Shown here: in pieces, positions 1 through 48,064 of the stretch | How the letters are laid out: the number at the start of each line of letters is the position of its first letter | Position numbering within the stretch: the first letter of the stretch is position 1 | Sequence record: OR885871 | Reading direction: 5' to 3' (one strand) | Length of the DNA: 64,000 bases | Source: Escherichia phage vB_EcoM_JN03 | Position numbers and translations under genes: made by a program | The notes under the pieces: model-generated | What the model was told of the DNA's origin: nothing | The model's database searches: none | What the model saw: the letters and a program-made list of their open reading frames with translations, nothing else

Positions 1-1655
1 CGGTCACCAATGATTACGCCTTTCATGATGTGAATCTAAAAGGCCAGCAAGCGCAGTTGGAACAGATCAATAATTCCAATGCGATGATCCAGCAACAATC
101 TGCGGATATTCTTGTCCAAGAGAAGGAACGTCTGAATAGCCTGAATTCAGATATCGGCGCAGTGCAGGAACAACTGACAGAGTCCCGTGCTCAAGACTCT
201 AAATTGGAATCAGAATTATCAGATGTTCGAAATAGACTGAATGCCGAAATGAAAGGGGATATCGATGCCATCAATGAAGAGTATGCGGCCAAAATCCAAG
301 CGGTTCAGGATGAGGCTGATACCAAGGCTGAAGACTATGAGCGTATCGAGGTGTCTGATGGCGAACGTTCATTACAAGAAATTCGGGAGAGAATGGCGGT
401 AGTCGCGGAACGTAAAAATGATCTGGTCAGCCAACGGAATGCTAACCTGGATGAACTGAACAAAGCATTAGCGCGGCGTCAGCAGGGTGAGAACTTCCGT
501 ATCAAATTCGTAACAGAAATGGAAGGACATGAATCTGCCATCAAACGTTTCCACGATATGGGCACTTGCCCTACGTGTACGCAATTAGTGTCGGACGATA
601 CCAAATCACGCATTGAAAGTCAATATTATCCACAAATCAGTGAACTGACTGACAAGATTCTTCAGGTTGATACAGCCCTAGAAGAAGTGAATTCCCTGAT
701 TGAGAATTACAATGTCAGAGATTCAGAATTATCTTCTCAGATTTCGGTTATTGACAAAGAACTGGATGCTTTGCGCAATGAAATCCGAGAAGCGGAATCA
801 GCGATCGCTACATTAAAACGCGACATCCAAGGATTCTATGATGTCGCTGCTGTTGAGAAAACATCTTTACAGCGGGAACAACAGTCCAAAATTAACGACG
901 TCCTCAAGGCCGTAGACACCCGTTACGAAGATATCACGACGTCAATCCGTCAAGCGCGTGAGCAGCTCTCTAAGAGTATCAACGACACGGCTGATAAACT
1001 CACCAGCCTGAAATCACGCCGTGCCCCTCTGGAGGCATCCATTGCCGATTTAGAGCGTAAATTGGCGGTTAAGCCGACACCAACTGACGCCCTGGAAGGA
1101 GAGATCGCTCGCATCACGGCATTAATGGAAGATCTGAATGCGCGGCGCGTAGAGTTGGATGAGAAATTGCAAGACCTGAACCATCTTCTGTTCTTCCTAA
1201 AAGATGATCAGACCAAGGCTCGAATTATCAGCCTGTATTTGCCTTTCCTCAATAGTAAAATAAACGAGTATCTTGAAGCACTCAATATGTTCTTGGATAT
1301 TGCTGTTGATGATACATTTGAAATCACCATGAGCGCTGCAGGTCGTAAAGGGCAAAGCATCTTCTCGTTATCTACTGGTCAGCGTAGTCGCCTGAACCTG
1401 GCTGTGACATTAGCTTTACGAGATGTTGCAAACCTCAAGGCGTCGGTGCAATGTAACCTGTTTGTGCTAGATGAAATCCTTGAGAACATGAGCGAGCGCG
1501 GCGTACAAGAATCGGTTGAGATGCTGAAGCATAAATTTGGCGGGAACAATCTGTTCGTTATCAGTCAACGCGAGCAGGAATTCCAAGAGTATTTCCAACA
1601 CAACATCCGTTATGGTCTGCGTAATGGCATGACTGAAGTGATTAAGAAGGATTGA
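1..1655 (+). CDS. SbcC/Rad50-like recombination ATPase (T4 gp46-like), 5' end outside window
   Basis: Frame open to window start; long coiled coil; C-terminal signature LSTGQRSRL and Walker B LFVLDE. Confidence 0.6.
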   Translation, partial: VTNDYAFHDVNLKGQQAQLEQINNSNAMIQQQSADILVQEKERLNSLNSDIGAVQEQLTESRAQDSKLESELSDVRNRLNAEMKGDIDAINEEYAAKIQAVQDEADTKAEDYERIEVSDGERSLQEIRERMAVVAERKNDLVSQRNANLDELNKALARRQQGENFRIKFVTEMEGHESAIKRFHDMGTCPTCTQLVSDDTKSRIESQYYPQISELTDKILQVDTALEEVNSLIENYNVRDSELSSQISVIDKELDALRNEIREAESAIATLKRDIQGFYDVAAVEKTSLQREQQSKINDVLKAVDTRYEDITTSIRQAREQLSKSINDTADKLTSLKSRRAPLEASIADLERKLAVKPTPTDALEGEIARITALMEDLNARRVELDEKLQDLNHLLFFLKDDQTKARIISLYLPFLNSKINEYLEALNMFLDIAVDDTFEITMSAAGRKGQSIFSLSTGQRSRLNLAVTLALRDVANLKASVQCNLFVLDEILENMSERGVQESVEMLKHKFGGNNLFVISQREQEFQEYFQHNIRYGLRNGMTEVIKKD

Positions 1656-1657
1656 AC

Positions 1658-1831
1658 ATGAACTGGGATCATCTGTGGTTGGCTATCAGTGTCTTTATGT
1701 TCTTTGATGCGTTGTTGGGAACGTACGAGATGAGTAGGGAGTCCAGAGTCGGGGTGATGGTTTGTTGTTCCCTTATCGGCGTGGTATCCCTTTATTTCGC
1801 TATTGGGTTTGCCGCAGAGATCTTCAAATGA
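1658..1831 (+). CDS. small membrane protein (57 aa, below ORF-track cutoff)
   Basis: ATG 3 nt after upstream stop, RBS AAGAAGGA; two hydrophobic segments; stop overlaps next ATG (ATGA). Confidence 0.4.
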   Translation: MNWDHLWLAISVFMFFDALLGTYEMSRESRVGVMVCCSLIGVVSLYFAIGFAAEIFK

Positions 1832-2157
1832 AAGTTGTCCACTTCAAGAAGGAACCATACGACGTCTACATTGGCCGTCCTGGCAAATGGGGAAACCCGT
1901 TCGAGGTCAAAGACCACGGGCGGGGAAACTGTATTGAGTTGTTTGAAGACGACTTGTATGTGCGCCTGATTGAAGGGGATATCACCGAAGATGAACTCCT
2001 TGAATTAGATGGAAAGACCTTGGGATGCTGGTGTAAGCCGCGCCCATGTCATGGAGATGTTTATGTCAAAGTGATCGGTCGTATTAAACTATTCCGTAAG
2101 TTGGGTAAATCTTTTACTGAATATTTGAGACAAACATATGTCAGAAGAGAAAGATGA
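1828..2157 (+). CDS. DUF4326-like protein
   Basis: YDVYIGRPGKWGNPF and LGCWCKPRPCHGDV motifs; start moved to ATG 1828 coupled to upstream stop. Confidence 0.45.
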   Translation: MKVVHFKKEPYDVYIGRPGKWGNPFEVKDHGRGNCIELFEDDLYVRLIEGDITEDELLELDGKTLGCWCKPRPCHGDVYVKVIGRIKLFRKLGKSFTEYLRQTYVRRER

Positions 2158-2422
2158 AATTCAGATTGCTTGTGATATCGCTGTCGAGTTATGGAATCAG
2201 CGAAACAAACATTATCAGGTGACGTTGACCCCAAAGCGTTATCTAGAGCAAGGTGGCTTAATAGTCGTTGATGCCGTGTTAGGTTTCAACAAATATACTG
2301 ACATGCAAATCTTGGACGGGGATTTCACTATTGCTTCCAATACAGCTTGGGATGATCCTATGGAATTTGTCTACGGTTGGTTGGAATGCATAGAGGAATC
2401 ATACCATCTGATCTACGAATAA
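2138..2422 (+). CDS. hypothetical protein
   Basis: ATG-initiated ORF followed by hairpin terminator. Confidence 0.4.
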   Translation: MSEEKDEIQIACDIAVELWNQRNKHYQVTLTPKRYLEQGGLIVVDAVLGFNKYTDMQILDGDFTIASNTAWDDPMEFVYGWLECIEESYHLIYE

Positions 2423-2427
2423 GGTGA

Positions 2428-2460
2428 AGGGCACTAAATATCACGTGCCCTTTATCTTTT
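2428..2460 (+). terminator. rho-independent terminator
   Basis: Stem AGGGCAC/GTGCCCT followed by TTTATCTTTT. Confidence 0.55.
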
Positions 2461-2519: not shown

Positions 2520-3134
2520 ATGACGATGACAACGTTGAAGGCCATGGCCTTGTCCGTGACCTTTACCATTGCCAGCGGGAATGTGCACGCTTCCCAAAAT
2601 ACAAGTCAATGTGTTTATGATTTCTCTGAGCAACAACTTAATACGCTGGCAACTGCCTATCACATAGGCAAGACGCAAGACCTTGGTTATACTCTGGCCG
2701 CCATATCTTGGCGAGAGAGCCGCGCTGGTGAAGATGTAGTGTCAATGCGATACGGTCTCAAGGCGGCCAACATGGGAGCCTTTCAGAACAAGGTGAAGAC
2801 AGTTGGTGATCGCGAGGGTTGTAAGAATCGCAAGTGCTATGCCAATGTCGCCATCAAGTTGTTGACCGACCAAGAATATGCCGCGCAAGCCGCCCTCGAT
2901 GAGATGCAGTTCTGGCTGACCTATCACAAGCAGAATGTACGCAAGTCTCTTTCCTCTTACAATGCTGGCTTCGCCCGTAATCCCGCATCGAACGCCTATG
3001 CCGCCGACGTCGTGAAGAAAGCTAAATATCTTCAGAAATGTGTGTCCTTCAAAGGGCGTTCCATCTCTGAGGTGGATCCTCAGGTGATCGCCATGAACAA
3101 GCGCACGATAGAGAAACTGAAGAGGACAAGATAA
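2520..3134 (+). CDS. secreted lytic transglycosylase-like protein (SLT domain)
   Basis: N-terminal signal-peptide-like segment; WRESRAG, GAFQ and SYNAG resemble SLT motifs ES / GLMQ / AYNAG. Confidence 0.45.
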   Translation: MTMTTLKAMALSVTFTIASGNVHASQNTSQCVYDFSEQQLNTLATAYHIGKTQDLGYTLAAISWRESRAGEDVVSMRYGLKAANMGAFQNKVKTVGDREGCKNRKCYANVAIKLLTDQEYAAQAALDEMQFWLTYHKQNVRKSLSSYNAGFARNPASNAYAADVVKKAKYLQKCVSFKGRSISEVDPQVIAMNKRTIEKLKRTR

Positions 3135-29048: not shown

Positions 29049-29711
29049 ATGTCTTATTCGCTCAAAGGGCTGTTGAAGCGCCCTGTGCATTTGTTTGTCA
29101 AACCACCTGCTGTAGAAGGGGAATATTCGGCACGAGGAGAGTTGTATTACATTAAAGGCTCCAATGGTAGTGGTAAGTCTACTGTGCCTTCTTATTTGGC
29201 GGAGAATGATCCTCAGGCGTATGTCGTAACCCATAACAGTAAGATCATGCTCACGGTTTGTCCATCTTACAATATTGTCTGTGTCGGTAAATATGACAAG
29301 TCTAAGTCCAAAGGGGTTGATTCTCTGAAGGATACTGAGCAGATGTTGTTCGCGTTGTCTATTGCTGACCAACCAGAATACCTGAAATATGATGTGATTT
29401 TTGAAGGCATCATTCCGTCTACATTATTGAGTTCTTGGATTCCCCGCCTGACACGCCCACCACGTGAATTGGTCGTCCTCTTTATGGATACCCCTCTTGA
29501 AACCTGTATTGCCCGTGTTAAATCGCGTAACGGTGGCGCAGACTTCAATGAAAGTCTGGTGGTCGAGAAGTGGGAGAGAGTTCATGATCACCGTCAACGG
29601 CATAAAGGCTTGTTCCCTACCGTTCCCGCAGGTATGATGAAGTCCGATGGCCTGACTGTAGAGCAGGCTGTTTTTGCGTTTCTCAATCGTGATTTTGGGA
29701 GTATTGATTGA
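29049..29711 (+). CDS. P-loop kinase-like protein
   Basis: Walker A GSNGSGKST and Walker B-like VIFEG; RBS GGAG before ATG 29049; stop overlaps next start. Confidence 0.5.
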   Translation: MSYSLKGLLKRPVHLFVKPPAVEGEYSARGELYYIKGSNGSGKSTVPSYLAENDPQAYVVTHNSKIMLTVCPSYNIVCVGKYDKSKSKGVDSLKDTEQMLFALSIADQPEYLKYDVIFEGIIPSTLLSSWIPRLTRPPRELVVLFMDTPLETCIARVKSRNGGADFNESLVVEKWERVHDHRQRHKGLFPTVPAGMMKSDGLTVEQAVFAFLNRDFGSID

Positions 29712-30751
29712 TGGAAATTTTTGCTCTAAATAATAATGACATGCTTAAGAAAGCTGTGTTGGCTATCCGTGAACACGGGATTGAGTCAGATCCTGGCAAC
29801 GCAGAGATTAACACTGACGGCACTCGTTTTATTGATGGCGTGACGATTACGGTGGCTGACCCTCGAGATCGTTGGTTATCTGTTGAAGGTCGTAATTCAT
29901 CTGCGCTTGCTGCGATTGGTGAAACATTCTGGGTTCTGTCAGGCCGCAATGACATCCGTTTCCTTTCCCGAGTCCTCCCTCGTGCGGTCAACTTCTCGGA
30001 TGATGGCGTAACGTGGCGTGGTGCTTACGGACCACGTCTGTACAACTATGGCCAGCTGGATAGTGTCATCAACCGTTTGCGCAATAACCCCAACACCCGT
30101 CAGGCGTATCTCACCATCTATGATCCAGCTCTGGACTCAGATGAAAGTTTGGCCGCGCATAGTGAAACAGGAGAAGCCAAGACTAAAGACATGATCTGTA
30201 ATCTGGCTTTATTGTTCAGTATAACAGAAGGGCGGTTGAACATCACGGTCATCAATCGAAGTCAGGATGTCCTCTGGGGTATGAGTTCAATCAACTTCAT
30301 TGAATTCTCCATTTTGCAGGAAGTATTGGCGAAGGTGCTGAACGTGGAAGTCGGGAATTATAAACTGTTCTCGAATAACCTTCACTATTATAACAACGAA
30401 GTCAGTCGGAAGCAACTCGGGAACATAACCAACAAGACCCGAACTTCTATTGGTATGTACAATTCTTTGTTGGAATTCTCTTCGGAAAAGGTGAAATGTC
30501 AAGAAAACATCCAAAATCTGTTCCTCGGTGTACTTCATCGCTGTGACATTGGCAGTGAATTTGGTAAAATCAGAGAGCATTTGAAGGAATATAACGCAGA
30601 TACAGGTTTGATGATGGATATGTCATATTGTCTGTGGTGTCGCCTTAATGATACTAAAATTGATAAACGTCGGATTGCTGATGATGGTCTTCGTAATGCG
30701 TTGTTGCAATCACCCGTTGACCGTAAACACATGTGGGGGTATGGGGAATGA
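29711..30751 (+). CDS. thymidylate synthase-family enzyme, divergent (possible pyrimidine hydroxymethylase)
   Basis: ThyA-like blocks GAYGPRLYNYGQ, NPNTRQAYLTIYDP, candidate nucleophile DMICNLALLF, RSQDVLWG. Confidence 0.6.
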   Translation: MEIFALNNNDMLKKAVLAIREHGIESDPGNAEINTDGTRFIDGVTITVADPRDRWLSVEGRNSSALAAIGETFWVLSGRNDIRFLSRVLPRAVNFSDDGVTWRGAYGPRLYNYGQLDSVINRLRNNPNTRQAYLTIYDPALDSDESLAAHSETGEAKTKDMICNLALLFSITEGRLNITVINRSQDVLWGMSSINFIEFSILQEVLAKVLNVEVGNYKLFSNNLHYYNNEVSRKQLGNITNKTRTSIGMYNSLLEFSSEKVKCQENIQNLFLGVLHRCDIGSEFGKIREHLKEYNADTGLMMDMSYCLWCRLNDTKIDKRRIADDGLRNALLQSPVDRKHMWGYGE

Positions 30752-31317
30752 AATACCCTAATCTAGAATTTTTTACGGGGCGCAAGCGCTCCGGCAAGGA
30801 CTTCTGTTTGGAGTCCCTCATCAGCTTTCACCATTTACAGGGTGATATGGACATCCAGCGCTTATCTTTCTCAGACGAGTTGCGTCGGGTGGCTCATTAC
30901 ATCTATCCTTGGTTGCCAGAGGAAGTAGAGGACGACATCAAGGACTTGCCATATGTTCACCCAGATAACCCCAAGGGATTAACCCCAAGGCAGATCTGGC
31001 TTCATCTCGGCAGCGATACGGGCTTGCGTTACGTACAACCAGACCTGTTTCTGTCATTCTTTAAACGATATCAACTTCCTTTGGTGGAACAGAACCCACA
31101 CGTTCATTATATCGTGAGTGATTTGCGCACCCCTCAGGAATATGAATGGGCGCTGAGCACTAAATGTCCCATCACCCGCATTTCAAAGGCGGATCGCGGT
31201 GGTATCATAGAGGATGACATTGAGGCTTTCATTGATAAGATGGAAGTTGATTATGAATTTGTCAATCCGTTTGAAGGTTGGCAACCGTTCGTCAAATTTT
31301 ATAGGGATCGGAAATGA
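30748..31317 (+). CDS. deoxynucleoside monophosphate kinase (T4 gp1-like)
   Basis: P-loop GRKRSGKD at N-terminus; ATGA-coupled to upstream gene. Confidence 0.55.
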   Translation: MKYPNLEFFTGRKRSGKDFCLESLISFHHLQGDMDIQRLSFSDELRRVAHYIYPWLPEEVEDDIKDLPYVHPDNPKGLTPRQIWLHLGSDTGLRYVQPDLFLSFFKRYQLPLVEQNPHVHYIVSDLRTPQEYEWALSTKCPITRISKADRGGIIEDDIEAFIDKMEVDYEFVNPFEGWQPFVKFYRDRK

Positions 31318-31859
31318 TCACAGCAGAGCATATTAAAAGTCTGCTCGAACTTCAAAAGGCCACCAACGTGGCCTATTTTGGGGAAGAGTGGAAGAAGCGC
31401 TGGACCGAAGTGGCGATAGCAAACTCCATCTATCGTGAGTGGGCAGAGTTTCTAGACGAAACAACCATAGACTGGAAGATCTATGGGGGTGGTAAGCATT
31501 GGCGACAAGTGGATGCCATATACGAGTTGGTGGACGTTGTTCACTTCATGCTCTGTGCTGTCCTGCAGGAGGAAGACAAACCACACGATATTCCAGAAAT
31601 GGTGAGATTCGTTCAGGCGCAGCCAATTCAAACCCCTCACGACCTCAGGAAAGTGACTGAACTGTTCACGTATTTCATGTCACACCCTCTTCGGAATGTT
31701 TTGGCTACCTTCTTGGCAGCGGCTTGCGGATATTTGGGGCTGGATGCTGAGACCTACATGCTGGCCCACAAGCGCAAGAACGATCGCAATCGTCTACGTG
31801 CTGCTGGCGGTGCGAACTATGATAAGTCCGCGGAAACCCCTTTGACTCTGGAGTTCTAA
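31314..31859 (+). CDS. all-alpha NTP pyrophosphatase, dimeric dUTPase/dCTPase family (T4 gp56-like)
   Basis: EWAEFLDET...DAIYELVDVVHFM and C-terminal K-x2-N-x2-R-type region; ATGA-coupled. Confidence 0.45.
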   Translation: MITAEHIKSLLELQKATNVAYFGEEWKKRWTEVAIANSIYREWAEFLDETTIDWKIYGGGKHWRQVDAIYELVDVVHFMLCAVLQEEDKPHDIPEMVRFVQAQPIQTPHDLRKVTELFTYFMSHPLRNVLATFLAAACGYLGLDAETYMLAHKRKNDRNRLRAAGGANYDKSAETPLTLEF

Positions 31860-32389
31860 TGTTTACAGTCGTCGTATCATATTACGCGGAACACGCCCCG
31901 CAAATGGCACAGAACTTTGCTGAGTTTATTAAACCTGGCAGACATGTCGTTATCGCGACCAAATTCAACAAAGAACCAGATGGTGCGGCTACTGTAACGC
32001 AACATATTACAACACCAGAGCCGGAAACACTTTTTAAACGCATTGAAGATTTTGCTTTTGGCGGGGAAGAAATTCCAGAGTCATTACAGCATATCTATTT
32101 TGAAGATGCGATATATTATGTTCATGCTATTCCAAAGGATGTTACAACTGAACAAATGATGTATATCCTGAATATCGCATTGAATGTTTCTTGTGTCAAC
32201 AGGGCACAGCACAATCGTCTGCGTAATATGTATTTAACAGAACGCGGGGGTTCCGAAATTAACGATGAAAAACTCCCGTCAATAATGGCGATTCATGAAG
32301 CAATCAATATATTGTCCAAGAAAGTCTTGGGCACCGATTTATTAATTACGATCAACAAGCAAGAGGAAACGAAATGGCCGATTCATTGA
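31859..32389 (+). CDS. hypothetical protein
   Basis: TAATG-coupled ORF. Confidence 0.4.
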   Translation: MFTVVVSYYAEHAPQMAQNFAEFIKPGRHVVIATKFNKEPDGAATVTQHITTPEPETLFKRIEDFAFGGEEIPESLQHIYFEDAIYYVHAIPKDVTTEQMMYILNIALNVSCVNRAQHNRLRNMYLTERGGSEINDEKLPSIMAIHEAINILSKKVLGTDLLITINKQEETKWPIH

Positions 32390-38504: not shown

Positions 38505-39113
38505 ATGTCACTGAAAACCTTTTTAAACCGCCTGTTCAGCACTGTCGAGGCCAATTTAACTGCAGGTTTGGATAAACTCACAGATACTGAGAAGCGTTTG
38601 AATCTGGCTGCACGGAAACTATCTGATGAAATCCGGCGTTTAGAAGAAGCCCGTGTAACCAATGTCCACCATGGCGTTAAGATGAAGAAGACCGCTGATG
38701 AAAATCTGGCTGAAGCCATCAAGCGAGAAACCATTTTGAAAGATGCGATCGCTCGTGGAGTAACTCCTACCCGCGCCGAAGCTTTAATCATACTCCACCG
38801 CCGTCGTATTGGTGAAGCCTTGCTGGATAAAGTCAAAGAGATCGAATCTGGCAGCGTGAAATTGAATTCGGCAATTGTTGAATTAGGTGACAAACTGGAC
38901 GCTGTTAAGTCTAATCTCGAATTGGTCCGAATTCAGAAAGAATCAAATGATCTTGGGTTAACTTTACCGGAAGACATCGATTACGCGGCTGGAATGATTA
39001 ATGTCGACGTTGATGCTATCCTTCGGGAAGCCGAAATCGCAGATTCCAATTATTCTACCAATAGCCCTTCAGCAACAGAAGCGGACAATTATCTGGCAAG
39101 TTTATCAAAATAA
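38505..39113 (+). CDS. PspA/IM30-like coiled-coil protein, tentative
   Basis: N-terminus FLNRLFSTVEANLTAGLDKL resembles PspA FSRFADIVNANINALLEKA; all-helical about 200 aa. Confidence 0.4.
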   Translation: MSLKTFLNRLFSTVEANLTAGLDKLTDTEKRLNLAARKLSDEIRRLEEARVTNVHHGVKMKKTADENLAEAIKRETILKDAIARGVTPTRAEALIILHRRRIGEALLDKVKEIESGSVKLNSAIVELGDKLDAVKSNLELVRIQKESNDLGLTLPEDIDYAAGMINVDVDAILREAEIADSNYSTNSPSATEADNYLASLSK

Positions 39114-47443: not shown

Positions 47444-48064
47444 ATGGCTATGTATTTGCAGGGGAAGTATGTTCCCGTAAATCCCAAGAAATATAAAGGC
47501 GACGTGAACAAAATAGTATTTCGTTCTTCGCTAGAACTTGTCGCCTTTAAATTTTGTGATATGAATCCTGCTATCGTCTATTGGTCTTCAGAAGAAACTG
47601 TAATCCCTTACATATCTCCGGTTGATGGCCGCGCCCATCGTTATTTCATGGATTTGAAGGTTTGGACTCGTCGGCAGGATTCCGATGAATTACAAATTAC
47701 TCTTATTGAAATAAAACCCAAAGACCAGATTAAAGAACCTCGCAAAACTAAAACGATGAAGGAATCAACATTCAATAATTCAATGCGCACTTGGTTGGTA
47801 AATCAGGCAAAGTGGACAGCAACTAAAGAACATTGTGCAAAGGTGGGTTGGAAATTCATTATCTGGACAGAAGAACATTTGGTGCCAGGTGAAGACCCAG
47901 AAGTTAAAAAACAATTTGCTCTTCGTTCTAAGAAAAAGCGCGAAGTCGAAATGGAAGATCGACGCCGCGCTCAAAGGATTAATGCGTTGAAAGAGCAAAT
48001 GAAGAAGGAAACTGCTAATAAACAACCAACGCAATCGGAAGATGATGGTTTGTTATTACCCTGA
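47444..48064 (+). CDS. head completion protein (gp4-like)
   Basis: N-terminal GKYVPVNPKKYKGDVNKIVFRSSLE...IPYISP pattern. Confidence 0.45.
   Translation: MAMYLQGKYVPVNPKKYKGDVNKIVFRSSLELVAFKFCDMNPAIVYWSSEETVIPYISPVDGRAHRYFMDLKVWTRRQDSDELQITLIEIKPKDQIKEPRKTKTMKESTFNNSMRTWLVNQAKWTATKEHCAKVGWKFIIWTEEHLVPGEDPEVKKQFALRSKKKREVEMEDRRRAQRINALKEQMKKETANKQPTQSEDDGLLLP

Follow-up and report, generated by a model that had tools for sequence, protein, structure and literature searches.

A small hydrophobic-protein gene and a DUF4326 gene in overlap at the tail of the gp47-gp46 unit of a Kuttervirus

Gene order downstream of gp46

The window, by which we mean the whole stretch of 64,000 nucleotides analysed from Escherichia phage vB_EcoM_JN03 (record OR885871), is Vi1-like Kuttervirus DNA (Ackermannviridae). 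Its positions 1400-2500 are 100% identical to Salmonella phage SPTD1, and outside this identical stretch the two are otherwise not colinear. The features of the locus are as follows.

1..1655, + strand: 3' part of the gene for a gp46 / SbcC (Rad50)-like recombination endonuclease subunit (phrog_77, E=1.2e-88; gp46 label in SPTD1)
1644..1651, + strand: Shine-Dalgarno sequence AAGAAGGA within the last gp46 codons (direct reading; AGGA core 6 nt 5' of ATG 1658)
1658..1831, + strand: gene for a small hydrophobic protein, 57 aa, lineage-specific accessory (ORF, dN/dS, hydropathy, AlphaFold2, SPTD1 annotation)
1828..1831, + strand: ATGA in which the small-ORF stop overlaps the DUF4326 start, a translational-coupling junction (direct reading)
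1828..2157, + strand: DUF4326 / T4 NrdA.1-family protein, 109 aa, with core 1-90 and C-terminal helix 96-108 (Pfam PF14216, phrog_464)
2138..2422, + strand: phrog_4165 protein, 94 aa (phrog_4165, E=3.2e-52), overlapping the DUF4326 3' end by 20 nt
2421..2458, + strand: strong RNA hairpin followed by U residues (MFE -20.4 kcal/mol, z=-6.7)

The order of gp46, the 57-aa hairpin protein, DUF4326, the phrog_4165 protein and the terminator-like hairpin is that of the tail of a gp47-gp46 (Mre11/Rad50-like) unit. The gp46-like gene, which also gave weak Pfam matches to the SbcC Walker B and SMC_N models, stops at 1653-1655, and the ATG of the small ORF at 1658 comes 2 nt later behind an AAGGA Shine-Dalgarno; the strong ribosome-binding site that the initial annotation placed here is thus found, at 1644-1651, and it is embedded in the gp46 3' end. 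This signal is kept in all relatives, and in phages without an inserted ORF (L026) an equivalent AAGGAG at the same gp46 3'-end site serves DUF4326 directly. A mechanical ORF listing extends the small ORF to TTG 1652, giving 59 aa.

At its other end, the TGA of the small ORF (1829-1831) overlaps the ATG at 1828 of the 109-aa ORF that ends at 2157, just as had been described. Every variant of the locus that has both an upstream ORF and an intact DUF4326 retains this 4-nt overlap, as ATGA or, in ViI, as GTGA, and in most variants the Shine-Dalgarno in the 25 nt upstream of DUF4326 is weak or absent. The physical coupling claimed for the pair therefore stands, the stop/start overlap and the weak independent ribosome-binding site both being read from the sequence. 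With little Shine-Dalgarno of its own, DUF4326 would be translated mainly by termination-reinitiation from whichever ORF sits upstream, and the pairing with the small ORF would therefore be a consequence of the insertion site and not a two-component machine. ATGA-coupled overlapping genes of phage operons share the 4-nt stop/start overlap and the weak downstream Shine-Dalgarno; unlike in them, the upstream partner is interchangeable here while the junction is preserved.

The mechanical listing starts the DUF4326 frame at TTG 1762, giving 131 aa, and the merged frame reported in the initial annotation starts at this position too. We rejected this frame because DUF4326 homologues start at MKVVH and because no in-frame start lies 5' of the MKVVH-equivalent codon in SilasIsHot, ViI, phage 38 or Maynard. 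From these comparisons we judge the true start to be ATG 1828; initiation at 1762, which the initial annotation had set against its own reading, is not where homologues and locus variants point.

Downstream, the phrog_4165 gene is a steady neighbour of DUF4326 in Ackermannviridae, and in three further loci (L029-L031) a homologue of it lies upstream of DUF4326 (33% identity, E=7e-16). The hairpin at 2421-2458 is probably the end of the gp47-gp46 transcription unit; a simple terminator scan missed it because its loop is 10 nt, and the SPTD1 annotation places a Kuttervirus late promoter just 3' of the ORF stop. Virion proteomics of Vi01-like phages (PMC10892097) contains nothing on these non-structural genes.

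The DUF4326 protein and its predicted activity

The assignment to DUF4326 passed a profile search: Pfam PF14216 matched at E=3.2e-24 with a score of 85.8 bits (cutoff 25), residues 3-79 covering positions 3-80 of the 82-position profile, and PHROGs returned phrog_464 at E=2.4e-46. Both motifs on which the initial annotation had relied, GKWGNPF and CWCKPRPCHGD, are present in the 109-aa ORF, as are all the residues invariant in a 53-sequence alignment (D12, R17, G22, N23, C67, C69, P71, C74, H75 and G76), and the gene is under purifying selection (dN/dS 0.045). The AlphaFold2 model (pLDDT 94.9) found 34 matches at E<=1e-3 in BFVD, nearly all of the named ones being DUF4326 (best TMq 0.91, rmsd 0.8), and the names include fusions of DUF4326 with DUF2493 and NADAR. 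In its full-length profile match, its 41% identity to T4 NrdA.1, its invariant motifs GRPxxWGNPF and LGCWCxPxxCHGD and its predicted fold (which a Serratia phage member matches at TM 0.91), the protein agrees with T4 NrdA.1 and the PF14216/phrog_464 family; unlike the rest of that family, the Ackermannviridae members add the C-terminal helix 96-108 and adjoin gp46 instead of nrdA. It is otherwise a plain NrdA.1-family member.

The family comprises 24,237 representative clusters (50% identity) and is found in 2,180 phage records, T4 NrdA.1 included; it occurs in about 4% of phage genome records. Its relatives sit among replication, recombination and nucleotide genes: at 58 unrelated phage loci the neighbours included 5'-3' exonuclease (three times), YqaJ, SMC/AAA_23 and PolA (twice each), as well as NrdD/NrdG and dUTPase, while NADAR occurred once among the 82 flanking genes. 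Fusions join DUF4326 to SLOG/YAcAr (L043, P0189, P0175), Macro (P0246) and RNase H (P0252) domains. At the family level, DUF4326 is thus found fused or adjacent to the Macro, NADAR or SLOG domains of the viral NAD+/ADP-ribose network (Iyer, Burroughs, Aravind 2021/2022). The initial annotation had flagged the gene for the presence of macro and NADAR genes elsewhere in the window, and here it did not hold: Pfam scans of 74 window proteins found no Macro (PF01661), NADAR (PF08719) or SLOG family, and PHROGs found none among the neighbouring genes or in ten more mid-sized proteins that lack annotation. With no such partner found in the window, an ADP-ribose role is drawn here solely by analogy with the family.

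The statement that DUF4326 has no established function is right as far as experiments go, but it omits published predictions, which place DUF4326 in the rhodanese-phosphatase superfamily as an enzymatic domain for terminal ribose phosphates in ADPr derivatives (PMC9503650) and have it bridge NAD+ systems with DNA modification and replication (PMC7824862). The only second family to recur in our own searches was PF22751 (DUF488-N3a), with weak sub-threshold matches in 14 of the 53 DUF4326 members (best E=0.0056). A RapZ-C/DUF488/DUF4326 clade was reportedly defined by Burroughs and Aravind in 2023. In the AlphaFold2 model a strand (64-67) ends at C67 and is followed by the loop WCKPRPC and a helix from residue 75; this order of strand ending in a cysteine, loop and helix N-terminus would be in keeping with the rhodanese-phosphatase superfamily, as would the weak DUF488-N3a matches and the genomic contexts tied to NAD+/ADPr and nucleic acids. 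There are also differences. DUF4326 has three cysteines and a histidine instead of one cysteine, and in the 53-sequence alignment no arginine is conserved in the loop after C67, whereas cysteine phosphatases have one in their CX5R motif. No solved member, RapZ included, gave a significant structural or profile match: Foldseek against the PDB returned nothing significant (best E=5.1; RapZ 8b0j_A at rank 15, TMq 0.30), the family profile and phmmer found 0 matches among PDB sequences, and hhalign against the single E. coli RapZ C-domain sequence gave a probability of 0.1%, aligning only TLGCW to AIGCT. Without a solved homologue, the PDB offers no anchor for the mechanism.

We propose that DUF4326 may belong to the DUF488/RapZ-C branch of the rhodanese-phosphatase superfamily and act as a small phosphoesterase-type enzyme that depends on cysteine. 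The putative active site would be built from the strand 64-67 ending in C67, the loop WCKPxxC and the helix starting at H75-G-D, to which the N-terminal GRPxxWGNPF loop would contribute D12, R17 and N23. Such an enzyme would probably remove or transfer phosphate on a ribose or nucleotide moiety, either in an ADP-ribose-derived metabolite or at a nucleic-acid end, and would aid phage DNA and nucleotide metabolism, or counter-defence, as an accessory that the phage can do without.

C67, C69, C74 and H75 could equally be zinc ligands, and from this follows a different reading, in which DUF4326 is a non-enzymatic small zinc-binding protein (C67, C69 and C74 with H75 or H5) that binds DNA or RNA, or else a partner, for instance the gp46/gp47 nuclease. 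The invariant C-x-C-x4-C-H cluster in a loop free of conserved arginine would suit it, as would the lack of structural similarity to any solved enzyme and the weak match of one member to a treble-clef zinc finger model. The constant place of the gene right after gp46 throughout Ackermannviridae also speaks for it, yet gp46 is not its neighbour in T4 and most other phages. Furthermore, the remaining invariant residues (D12, R17, N23 and D77) lie in loops and resemble an active site, the fusion partners SLOG, Macro and RNase H are ligand-binding or enzymatic domains, and the weak similarity that recurs is to an 'active DUF488-N3' model. We therefore regard a purely zinc-binding role as rather unlikely and keep the phosphoesterase-type enzyme as the preferred reading.

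A swap site between gp46 and DUF4326

What lies between gp46 and DUF4326 changes from relative to relative, which makes this slot a swap site: it may hold one of several unrelated small hydrophobic ORFs, a DUF7175 protein of 102 aa, the two together, or no gene at all. The window type occurs in 39 records and the SilasIsHot type, which is 28% identical to it (pairwise E=0.002), in 38; the Maynard type (9 records) has no similarity to either. The DUF7175 type is found in 138 records, the soluble basic protein occupying the slot in ViI-type phages and standing in tandem with the 57-aa ORF in Agtrevirus, and in Taipeivirus and Limestonevirus the slot is empty, with DUF4326 directly 3' of gp46. 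Altogether, the slot is filled by four kinds of two-segment hydrophobic ORF, 53-57 aa long, with little or no sequence relation to one another. Three of them overlap the start of an intact DUF4326 by 4 nt, and the fourth, in Klebsiella phage May, begins with the first codons of DUF4326 and replaces its 5' part. DUF4326 is also truncated in aagejoakim-type phages and in LIMEstone1, and PhaxI, like aagejoakim, counts as a natural DUF4326-less phage; judging from these sequences it appears dispensable in Ackermannviridae.

The initial annotation, by setting the two genes side by side, implied that they work together. On this reading the hairpin protein and DUF4326 are functional partners, the former tethering or regulating the latter at the inner membrane, with different hairpins taken up for the same task from lineage to lineage. 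That four two-segment ORFs of like size have arrived exactly at this slot speaks for it; so do P0244, on an unrelated phage contig, in which DUF7220 with its two hydrophobic segments is fused in frame to DUF4326, and L053, in which a 57-aa hydrophobic ORF overlaps the DUF4326 stop. The small ORF itself has no similarity to DUF7220. Against partnership, the slot holds a soluble protein in ViI-type phages or stands empty in close relatives, the hydrophobic ORF of Klebsiella phage May destroyed DUF4326 instead of partnering it, and the best 150 family representatives are mostly free-standing proteins of about 100 aa. Small membrane ORFs are, moreover, common fillers of phage early regions. A small hydrophobic neighbour of DUF4326 was seen at only 1-3 of the 58 unrelated phage loci, so that the coupling is translational and not an obligate partnership. 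Position rather than function seems to link the small ORF to DUF4326, and the case for pairing made by the initial annotation is correspondingly weak; we consider a functional partnership improbable.

The repeated arrival of membrane ORFs at the junction, together with the DUF7220-DUF4326 fusion, nevertheless leaves room for a real membrane link. There is a slim chance that DUF4326 works at the inner membrane and that the junction for this reason captures two-helix membrane proteins again and again, with the hairpins as interchangeable anchors or regulators. Were this true, the hairpins would place a phosphate-processing enzyme by a membrane-associated target, e.g., a defence effector in the membrane, or a signal that is a nucleotide or derives from ADP-ribose, and an arms race with host defences would explain why the hairpins turn over so fast.

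The small hydrophobic protein and the meaning of the locus

That the small ORF is a gene was correctly recognized at the outset, but it was 'unlisted' only in the ORF track then at hand: GenBank annotates it as ORF119 of SPTD1 (WID61865.1) and gp66 of Det7. The two transmembrane segments first proposed fared unequally. Residues about 31-53 are clearly of transmembrane grade (Kyte-Doolittle 19-residue mean 2.39), while residues 6-22, with D17 inside, are marginal (1.42 over 19 residues, 1.85 over 17). AlphaFold2 folds the 57-aa protein as a two-helix hairpin (H3-28 and H31-56, pLDDT 79.6), and from this model we predict that it sits in the inner membrane as a helical hairpin. The small ORF matched no family in Pfam, PHROGs or NCBIfam, and PADLOC and NCBIfam searches over all genes of the cluster gave no meaningful match, the sole one being the chance-level PDC-M48A (E=0.008) on the hydrophobic ORF.

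Small phage-encoded inner-membrane proteins from early regions include T4 Imm, Sp and the like. The small protein is similar to these, and to the Maynard ORF labelled 'holin', in size (53-57 aa), in its two hydrophobic helices, in its place among early/middle genes and in its patchy occurrence in close relatives, but it has no sequence similarity to any described family. It may be an independently acting early/middle membrane protein of the kind used in host-membrane takeover or superinfection exclusion.

Related records carry the labels 'putative membrane protein' for the SilasIsHot-type ORF and 'holin' for the slot occupant in Maynard, Marshall, EP75 and MK-13. If the second label were right, the small ORF could be a holin- or antiholin-type lysis protein; its small size and two hydrophobic helices would agree, at least one transmembrane segment being present as in holins, and a gene for a secreted SLT-like protein lies about 700 nt downstream (2520-3134). 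However, two genes and the strong hairpin separate the small ORF from that SLT-like gene, the muramidase-type gene of the window is located elsewhere, and the small ORF does not lie in a late lysis cassette beside an endolysin, but in the gp47-gp46 recombination operon upstream of annotated late promoters. The window-, SilasIsHot- and Maynard-type ORFs matched no holin family in Pfam, PHROGs or NCBIfam, the only hit being a chance-level one to Pox_A14 (E=0.007), and many close relatives either lack the gene or have one for a soluble protein in its place, which would be odd for an essential lysis function. A holin is therefore very unlikely.

Only 4 clusters carry the window-type small ORF, and in the RA148 and Phi_10 records it is frameshifted. 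Compared with its Agtrevirus orthologues it has a dN/dS of 0.075, with dS about 0.95-1.03 and 18.8 synonymous against 9.2 non-synonymous changes, and its protein is 100% identical in 33 records, although in those of them that were listed as DNA matches the surrounding DNA differs by 3-4%. These substitution patterns indicate a genuine coding gene under purifying selection, and together with the strong, correctly spaced Shine-Dalgarno, the homologues that have no counterpart of the 22-codon extension and the four slot variants with no in-frame upstream start, they make it scarcely credible that the small ORF stands open by chance and that DUF4326 is a 131-aa protein made from TTG 1762, despite the mechanical listing and the two frameshifted records that would suit such a view.

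Taken as a whole, our account comprises an accessory-gene operon tail, a swap slot, a positional pairing, DUF4326 as a phosphoesterase-type enzyme and an independent membrane protein, and we give it an even chance of being correct. The genes themselves are ordinary, already annotated accessory genes, and the function of DUF4326 is only predicted. The labels 'holin', 'NrdA-like ribonucleotide reductase', 'thyroid adenoma-associated protein' and 'RegB' in related records proved unsupported, and these, like the wrong 131-aa frame from TTG 1762, should be taken as a warning for annotation. While the locus adds little beyond the existing predictions for DUF4326, it shows a gene that in Ackermannviridae is dispensable yet fixed after gp46 and beside phrog_4165, and a junction that is a hot spot for small membrane genes. 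DUF4326/NrdA.1 is among the most widespread uncharacterised phage domains, and any experimental handle on it would be useful.

The small membrane ORF and its DUF4326 neighbor

The initial annotation was correct in its observation, and both ORFs that it singled out are real. The features concerned are as follows.

1653-1655: TGA stop of the gp46/SbcC-like gene (phrog_77, E=1.2e-88)
1658-1831, + strand: small ORF of 57 codons, ATG 1658 to TGA 1829-1831, predicted membrane hairpin
1828-2157, + strand: DUF4326 gene of 109 codons, ATG 1828
2138-2422: third ORF, 94 aa, phrog_4165, overlapping the end of the DUF4326 frame by 20 nt
2421-2458: hairpin followed by U residues, 3' of the third ORF (folding, -20.4 kcal/mol, z=-6.7)

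The small ORF does follow the gp46-like stop, with AAGAAGGA at 1644-1651 ahead of its ATG, and its TGA overlaps the DUF4326 ATG (ATGA) as proposed. It is a real gene. Its Agtrevirus orthologues in ChubbyThor and P46FS4, which belong to another subfamily, differ from it by 18.8-19.8 synonymous and 9.2-10.2 non-synonymous changes (dS 0.95-1.03, dN 0.07-0.08, dN/dS 0.075), the adjoining DUF4326 gene giving a dN/dS of 0.045 in the same comparison. Furthermore, the protein is 100% identical across 33 records, and in those of them that appear among the locus matches the flanking DNA is 3-4% divergent. Of the two transmembrane segments assigned to it, residues 31-53 are clearly transmembrane-grade by hydropathy and residues 6-22 are borderline, and the AlphaFold2 model (pLDDT 79.6) contains two helices, 3-28 and 31-56. 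Scans of Pfam, PHROG and NCBIfam returned no match for the protein and PADLOC none that was meaningful; among 5.8 billion proteins clustered at 90% identity it accounts for only four clusters. The ORF had been called unlisted, which did not hold: public records label it hypothetical protein, the 100%-identical copies inspected being SPTD1 ORF119 and Det7 gp66. Since the feature is already annotated, and its partner comes from a family that is known and has been discussed in computational work, it is not new.

Frameshifts occur in the small ORF of Phi_10 (compensated; L012:1501-1677, L-numbers denoting the viral loci compared) and RA148 (uncompensated; L013:1470-1660), and represent either sequencing errors or recent decay. 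The GenBank label of the ChubbyThor orthologue gp136 (L010:1501-1674), 'putative thyroid adenoma-associated protein', is unsupported.

As the ORF track had shown, the mechanical call opens the DUF4326 frame at TTG 1762, yielding 131 aa. We rejected this start: 52 homologues begin from MKVVH in the alignment, and SilasIsHot, ViI, phage 38 and Maynard have no in-frame start 5' of the DUF4326 (A/G)TG back to the nearest stop. The extension is therefore a mechanical ORF-calling artefact. If an ORF precedes DUF4326 in the slot, the two always share 4 nt at the DUF4326 start (GTGA in ViI, ATGA otherwise), and a Shine-Dalgarno is then mostly missing from the 25 nt 5' of that start, a weakness that would be consistent with reinitiation-type coupling.

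Over 1400-2500 the window matches Salmonella phage SPTD1 (OP991882.2; Ackermannviridae, Cvivirinae, Kuttervirus) at 100% identity, and Det7, maane, SS3 and many further Vi1-like phages at 95-97%; 269 phage records match this segment, and colinearity between SPTD1 and the window is not kept everywhere. SPTD1 is annotated in the order gp47, gp46, ORF119 (174 nt), ORF120 (330 nt), ORF121 (285 nt), Kuttervirus late promoter and ORF122, the promoter lying immediately 3' of the stop of the third-ORF equivalent. Because a strong hairpin and a late promoter thus follow the third ORF, the three small genes close the gp47-gp46 unit; the hairpin, which escaped a simple terminator scan because of its 10-nt loop, is likely its terminator. 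Two records with about 96% identical Kuttervirus DNA over the locus, MN871475.1 (Pseudomonas phage Pa-sanjiao) and OR844944.1 (Enterococcus phage Efm 3-10), bear host labels that look doubtful, through contamination or mislabelling.

Several other genes of the window were observed in passing. The 204-aa protein at 2520-3134, with a signal-peptide-like N-terminus, weakly matches Pfam SLT (lytic transglycosylase, E=3.7e-4), and its 'RegB endoribonuclease' label in several related records looks like a propagated misannotation. A thymidine-hypermodification cluster, known biology typical of ViI-like phages, occupies 29049-29711, 29711-30751, 31314-31859 and 31859-32389; its members are a 5-hmdU DNA kinase (Pfam E=2.4e-113), an ORF lying where SPTD1 has its annotated dU hydroxymethyltransferase, a dUTPase_2-like protein and a phage ACT-like domain protein. 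Both a TnsA-like endonuclease N-terminal domain protein (47444-48064, E=6.3e-17) and a PspA/IM30-like protein (38505-39113, 33.7 bits, just below the Pfam cutoff of 33.9) are hypothetical in SPTD1.

The DUF4326 family

Profile searching upheld the DUF4326 assignment (Pfam, 85.8 bits with the cutoff at 25, E=3.2e-24; phrog_464, E=2.4e-46). The family spans 24,237 representative clusters at E<=1e-3 (10,494 at E<=1e-10) and occurs in 2,180 phage records, T4 included, whose homologue NrdA.1 (41% identity, Pfam E=5.5e-22) is the reason for the labels 'NrdA.1' and, by corruption, 'ribonucleotide reductase NrdA-like'. Residues D12, R17, G22, N23, L60, L65, G66, C67, C69, P71, C74, H75 and G76 are invariant, and H5, W21, P24, F25, R32, K63, W68 and D77 nearly so. 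In the AlphaFold2 model (pLDDT 94.9; short strands 2-5, 13-14 and 64-67; helices 27-30, 32-49, 54-58, 75-91 and 96-108), a strand ends at invariant C67, WCKPxxC forms a loop and H75-G-D caps a helix. The chemistry predicted is likely a cysteine-dependent handling of ribose- or nucleotide-linked phosphate.

Foldseek against BFVD recovered the family itself (best TM 0.91), with matches named DUF2493 (SLOG) and 'NADAR domain with protein tyrosine phosphatase'; against the PDB, Foldseek matched nothing (best E=5.1) and sequence and profile searches were empty. A RapZ-C/DUF488/DUF4326 clade was reportedly defined by Burroughs & Aravind in 2023, with DNA-end processing predicted for some members. 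Alignment of DUF4326 with the E. coli RapZ C-domain by hhalign gave a probability of 0.1%. In a lax Pfam scan, 14 of 53 aligned members weakly matched PF22751, 'Active DUF488-N3 subclade' (best E=0.0056), the only recurring family besides DUF4326, which lends modest, independent support to the published placement beside DUF488.

The initial annotation had also placed macro and NADAR genes elsewhere in the window. Neither was detected by Pfam on 74 proteins (mostly E<=0.001-0.01), nor by PHROGs in the neighboring genes and in a further ten proteins of 150-206 aa that lacked annotation; an ADP-ribose role of DUF4326 in this phage would therefore be suggested by family analogy only. In unrelated phages the neighbors are replication, recombination and nucleotide-metabolism genes: 5'-3' exonuclease three times, YqaJ, SMC_N/AAA_23 and PolA twice each, NrdD/NrdG, dUTPase and PhoH, and NADAR once. 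A Rhizobium phage has DUF4326 flanked by a Cas4-type exonuclease and dCMP deaminase, and in T4 the gene sits between nrdA.2 and nrdA. Among longer close relatives (P-numbers denoting proteins), we found fusions to SLOG/YAcAr (L043:3007-3837, P0189, P0175), Macro (P0246) and RNase H (P0252), the last with no mention found in the literature examined, as well as three tandem DUF4326 domains (P0125). These contexts agree with the literature, in which DUF4326 is a predicted enzymatic domain linking NAD+-utilising systems to DNA modification, replication and restriction-modification (Iyer et al. 2021, PMC7824862), is placed in the rhodanese-phosphatase superfamily with ribose-borne terminal phosphates of ADPr derivatives as its predicted substrates (PMC9503650), and in amoeba viruses forms fusions with homologues of the anti-Avs protein ORF83 (2025 preprint).

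A mosaic slot between gp46 and DUF4326

Among relatives, the interval between gp46 and DUF4326 is mosaic, with these main occupants.

Window type: 57 aa, 39 records, the flagged ORF
SilasIsHot type: 54 aa, 38 records
Maynard type: 53 aa, 9 records, labelled 'holin'
DUF7175: 102 aa, 138 records, basic and non-hydrophobic, in ViI, phage 38, CBA120 and others

The SilasIsHot type, 28% identical to the window type end to end (pairwise E=0.002), is probably its diverged homologue; the Maynard type has no detectable similarity to either. In Agtrevirus phages DUF7175 and the 57-aa ORF stand in tandem. The slot is empty in Dickeya Limestonevirus (18-nt gap) and Klebsiella Taipeivirus (2-nt gap); in Taipeivirus an AAGGAG embedded in gp46 serves DUF4326. 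Klebsiella phage May has a fourth hydrophobic ORF (56 aa, two segments), unrelated to the others, whose first codons are the MKVV codons of DUF4326 itself and which has taken over the 5' part of that gene (L072:2828-3232). The two-hydrophobic-segment layout is common to all of the small hydrophobic slot proteins.

DUF4326 itself is dispensable in Ackermannviridae. Only codons 67-109 are left in aagejoakim-type phages (L007:2994-3113; PhaxI and STML-13-1 too), LIMEstone1 (L028:3019-3273) is without the N-terminal motif region, and in phage May the gene is disrupted. The place of DUF4326 behind gp46 is steady, as is its association with the phrog_4165 gene, which lies 3' of DUF4326 in the window and 5' of it in L029:2693-3010, L030:2721-3020 and L031:2724-3020 (33% identity, E=7e-16), and whose protein has no Pfam family.

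The membrane-ORF/DUF4326 pairing is not general: a small hydrophobic same-strand ORF adjoins DUF4326 in only 1-3 of 58 unrelated viral loci, namely a lipoprotein-like ORF (L036), a doubtful TTG ORF (L087) and a 57-aa ORF overlapping the DUF4326 stop (L053). The only membrane-domain fusion seen, P0244 (L099:4001-4576), joins DUF7220, with two hydrophobic segments, in frame to DUF4326 on a metagenomic phage contig that additionally codes for PolA, a 5'-3' exonuclease and a PD-(D/E)xK protein; it does not resemble the small ORF of the window. In view of this fusion a functional link is conceivable; that the junction has repeatedly captured unrelated membrane hairpins is, taken with the fusion, mildly intriguing. 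Our best reading is one of positional and translational coupling, in which small, fast-turning-over membrane genes would have been inserted ahead of a dispensable, NrdA.1-type, enzyme-like gene.
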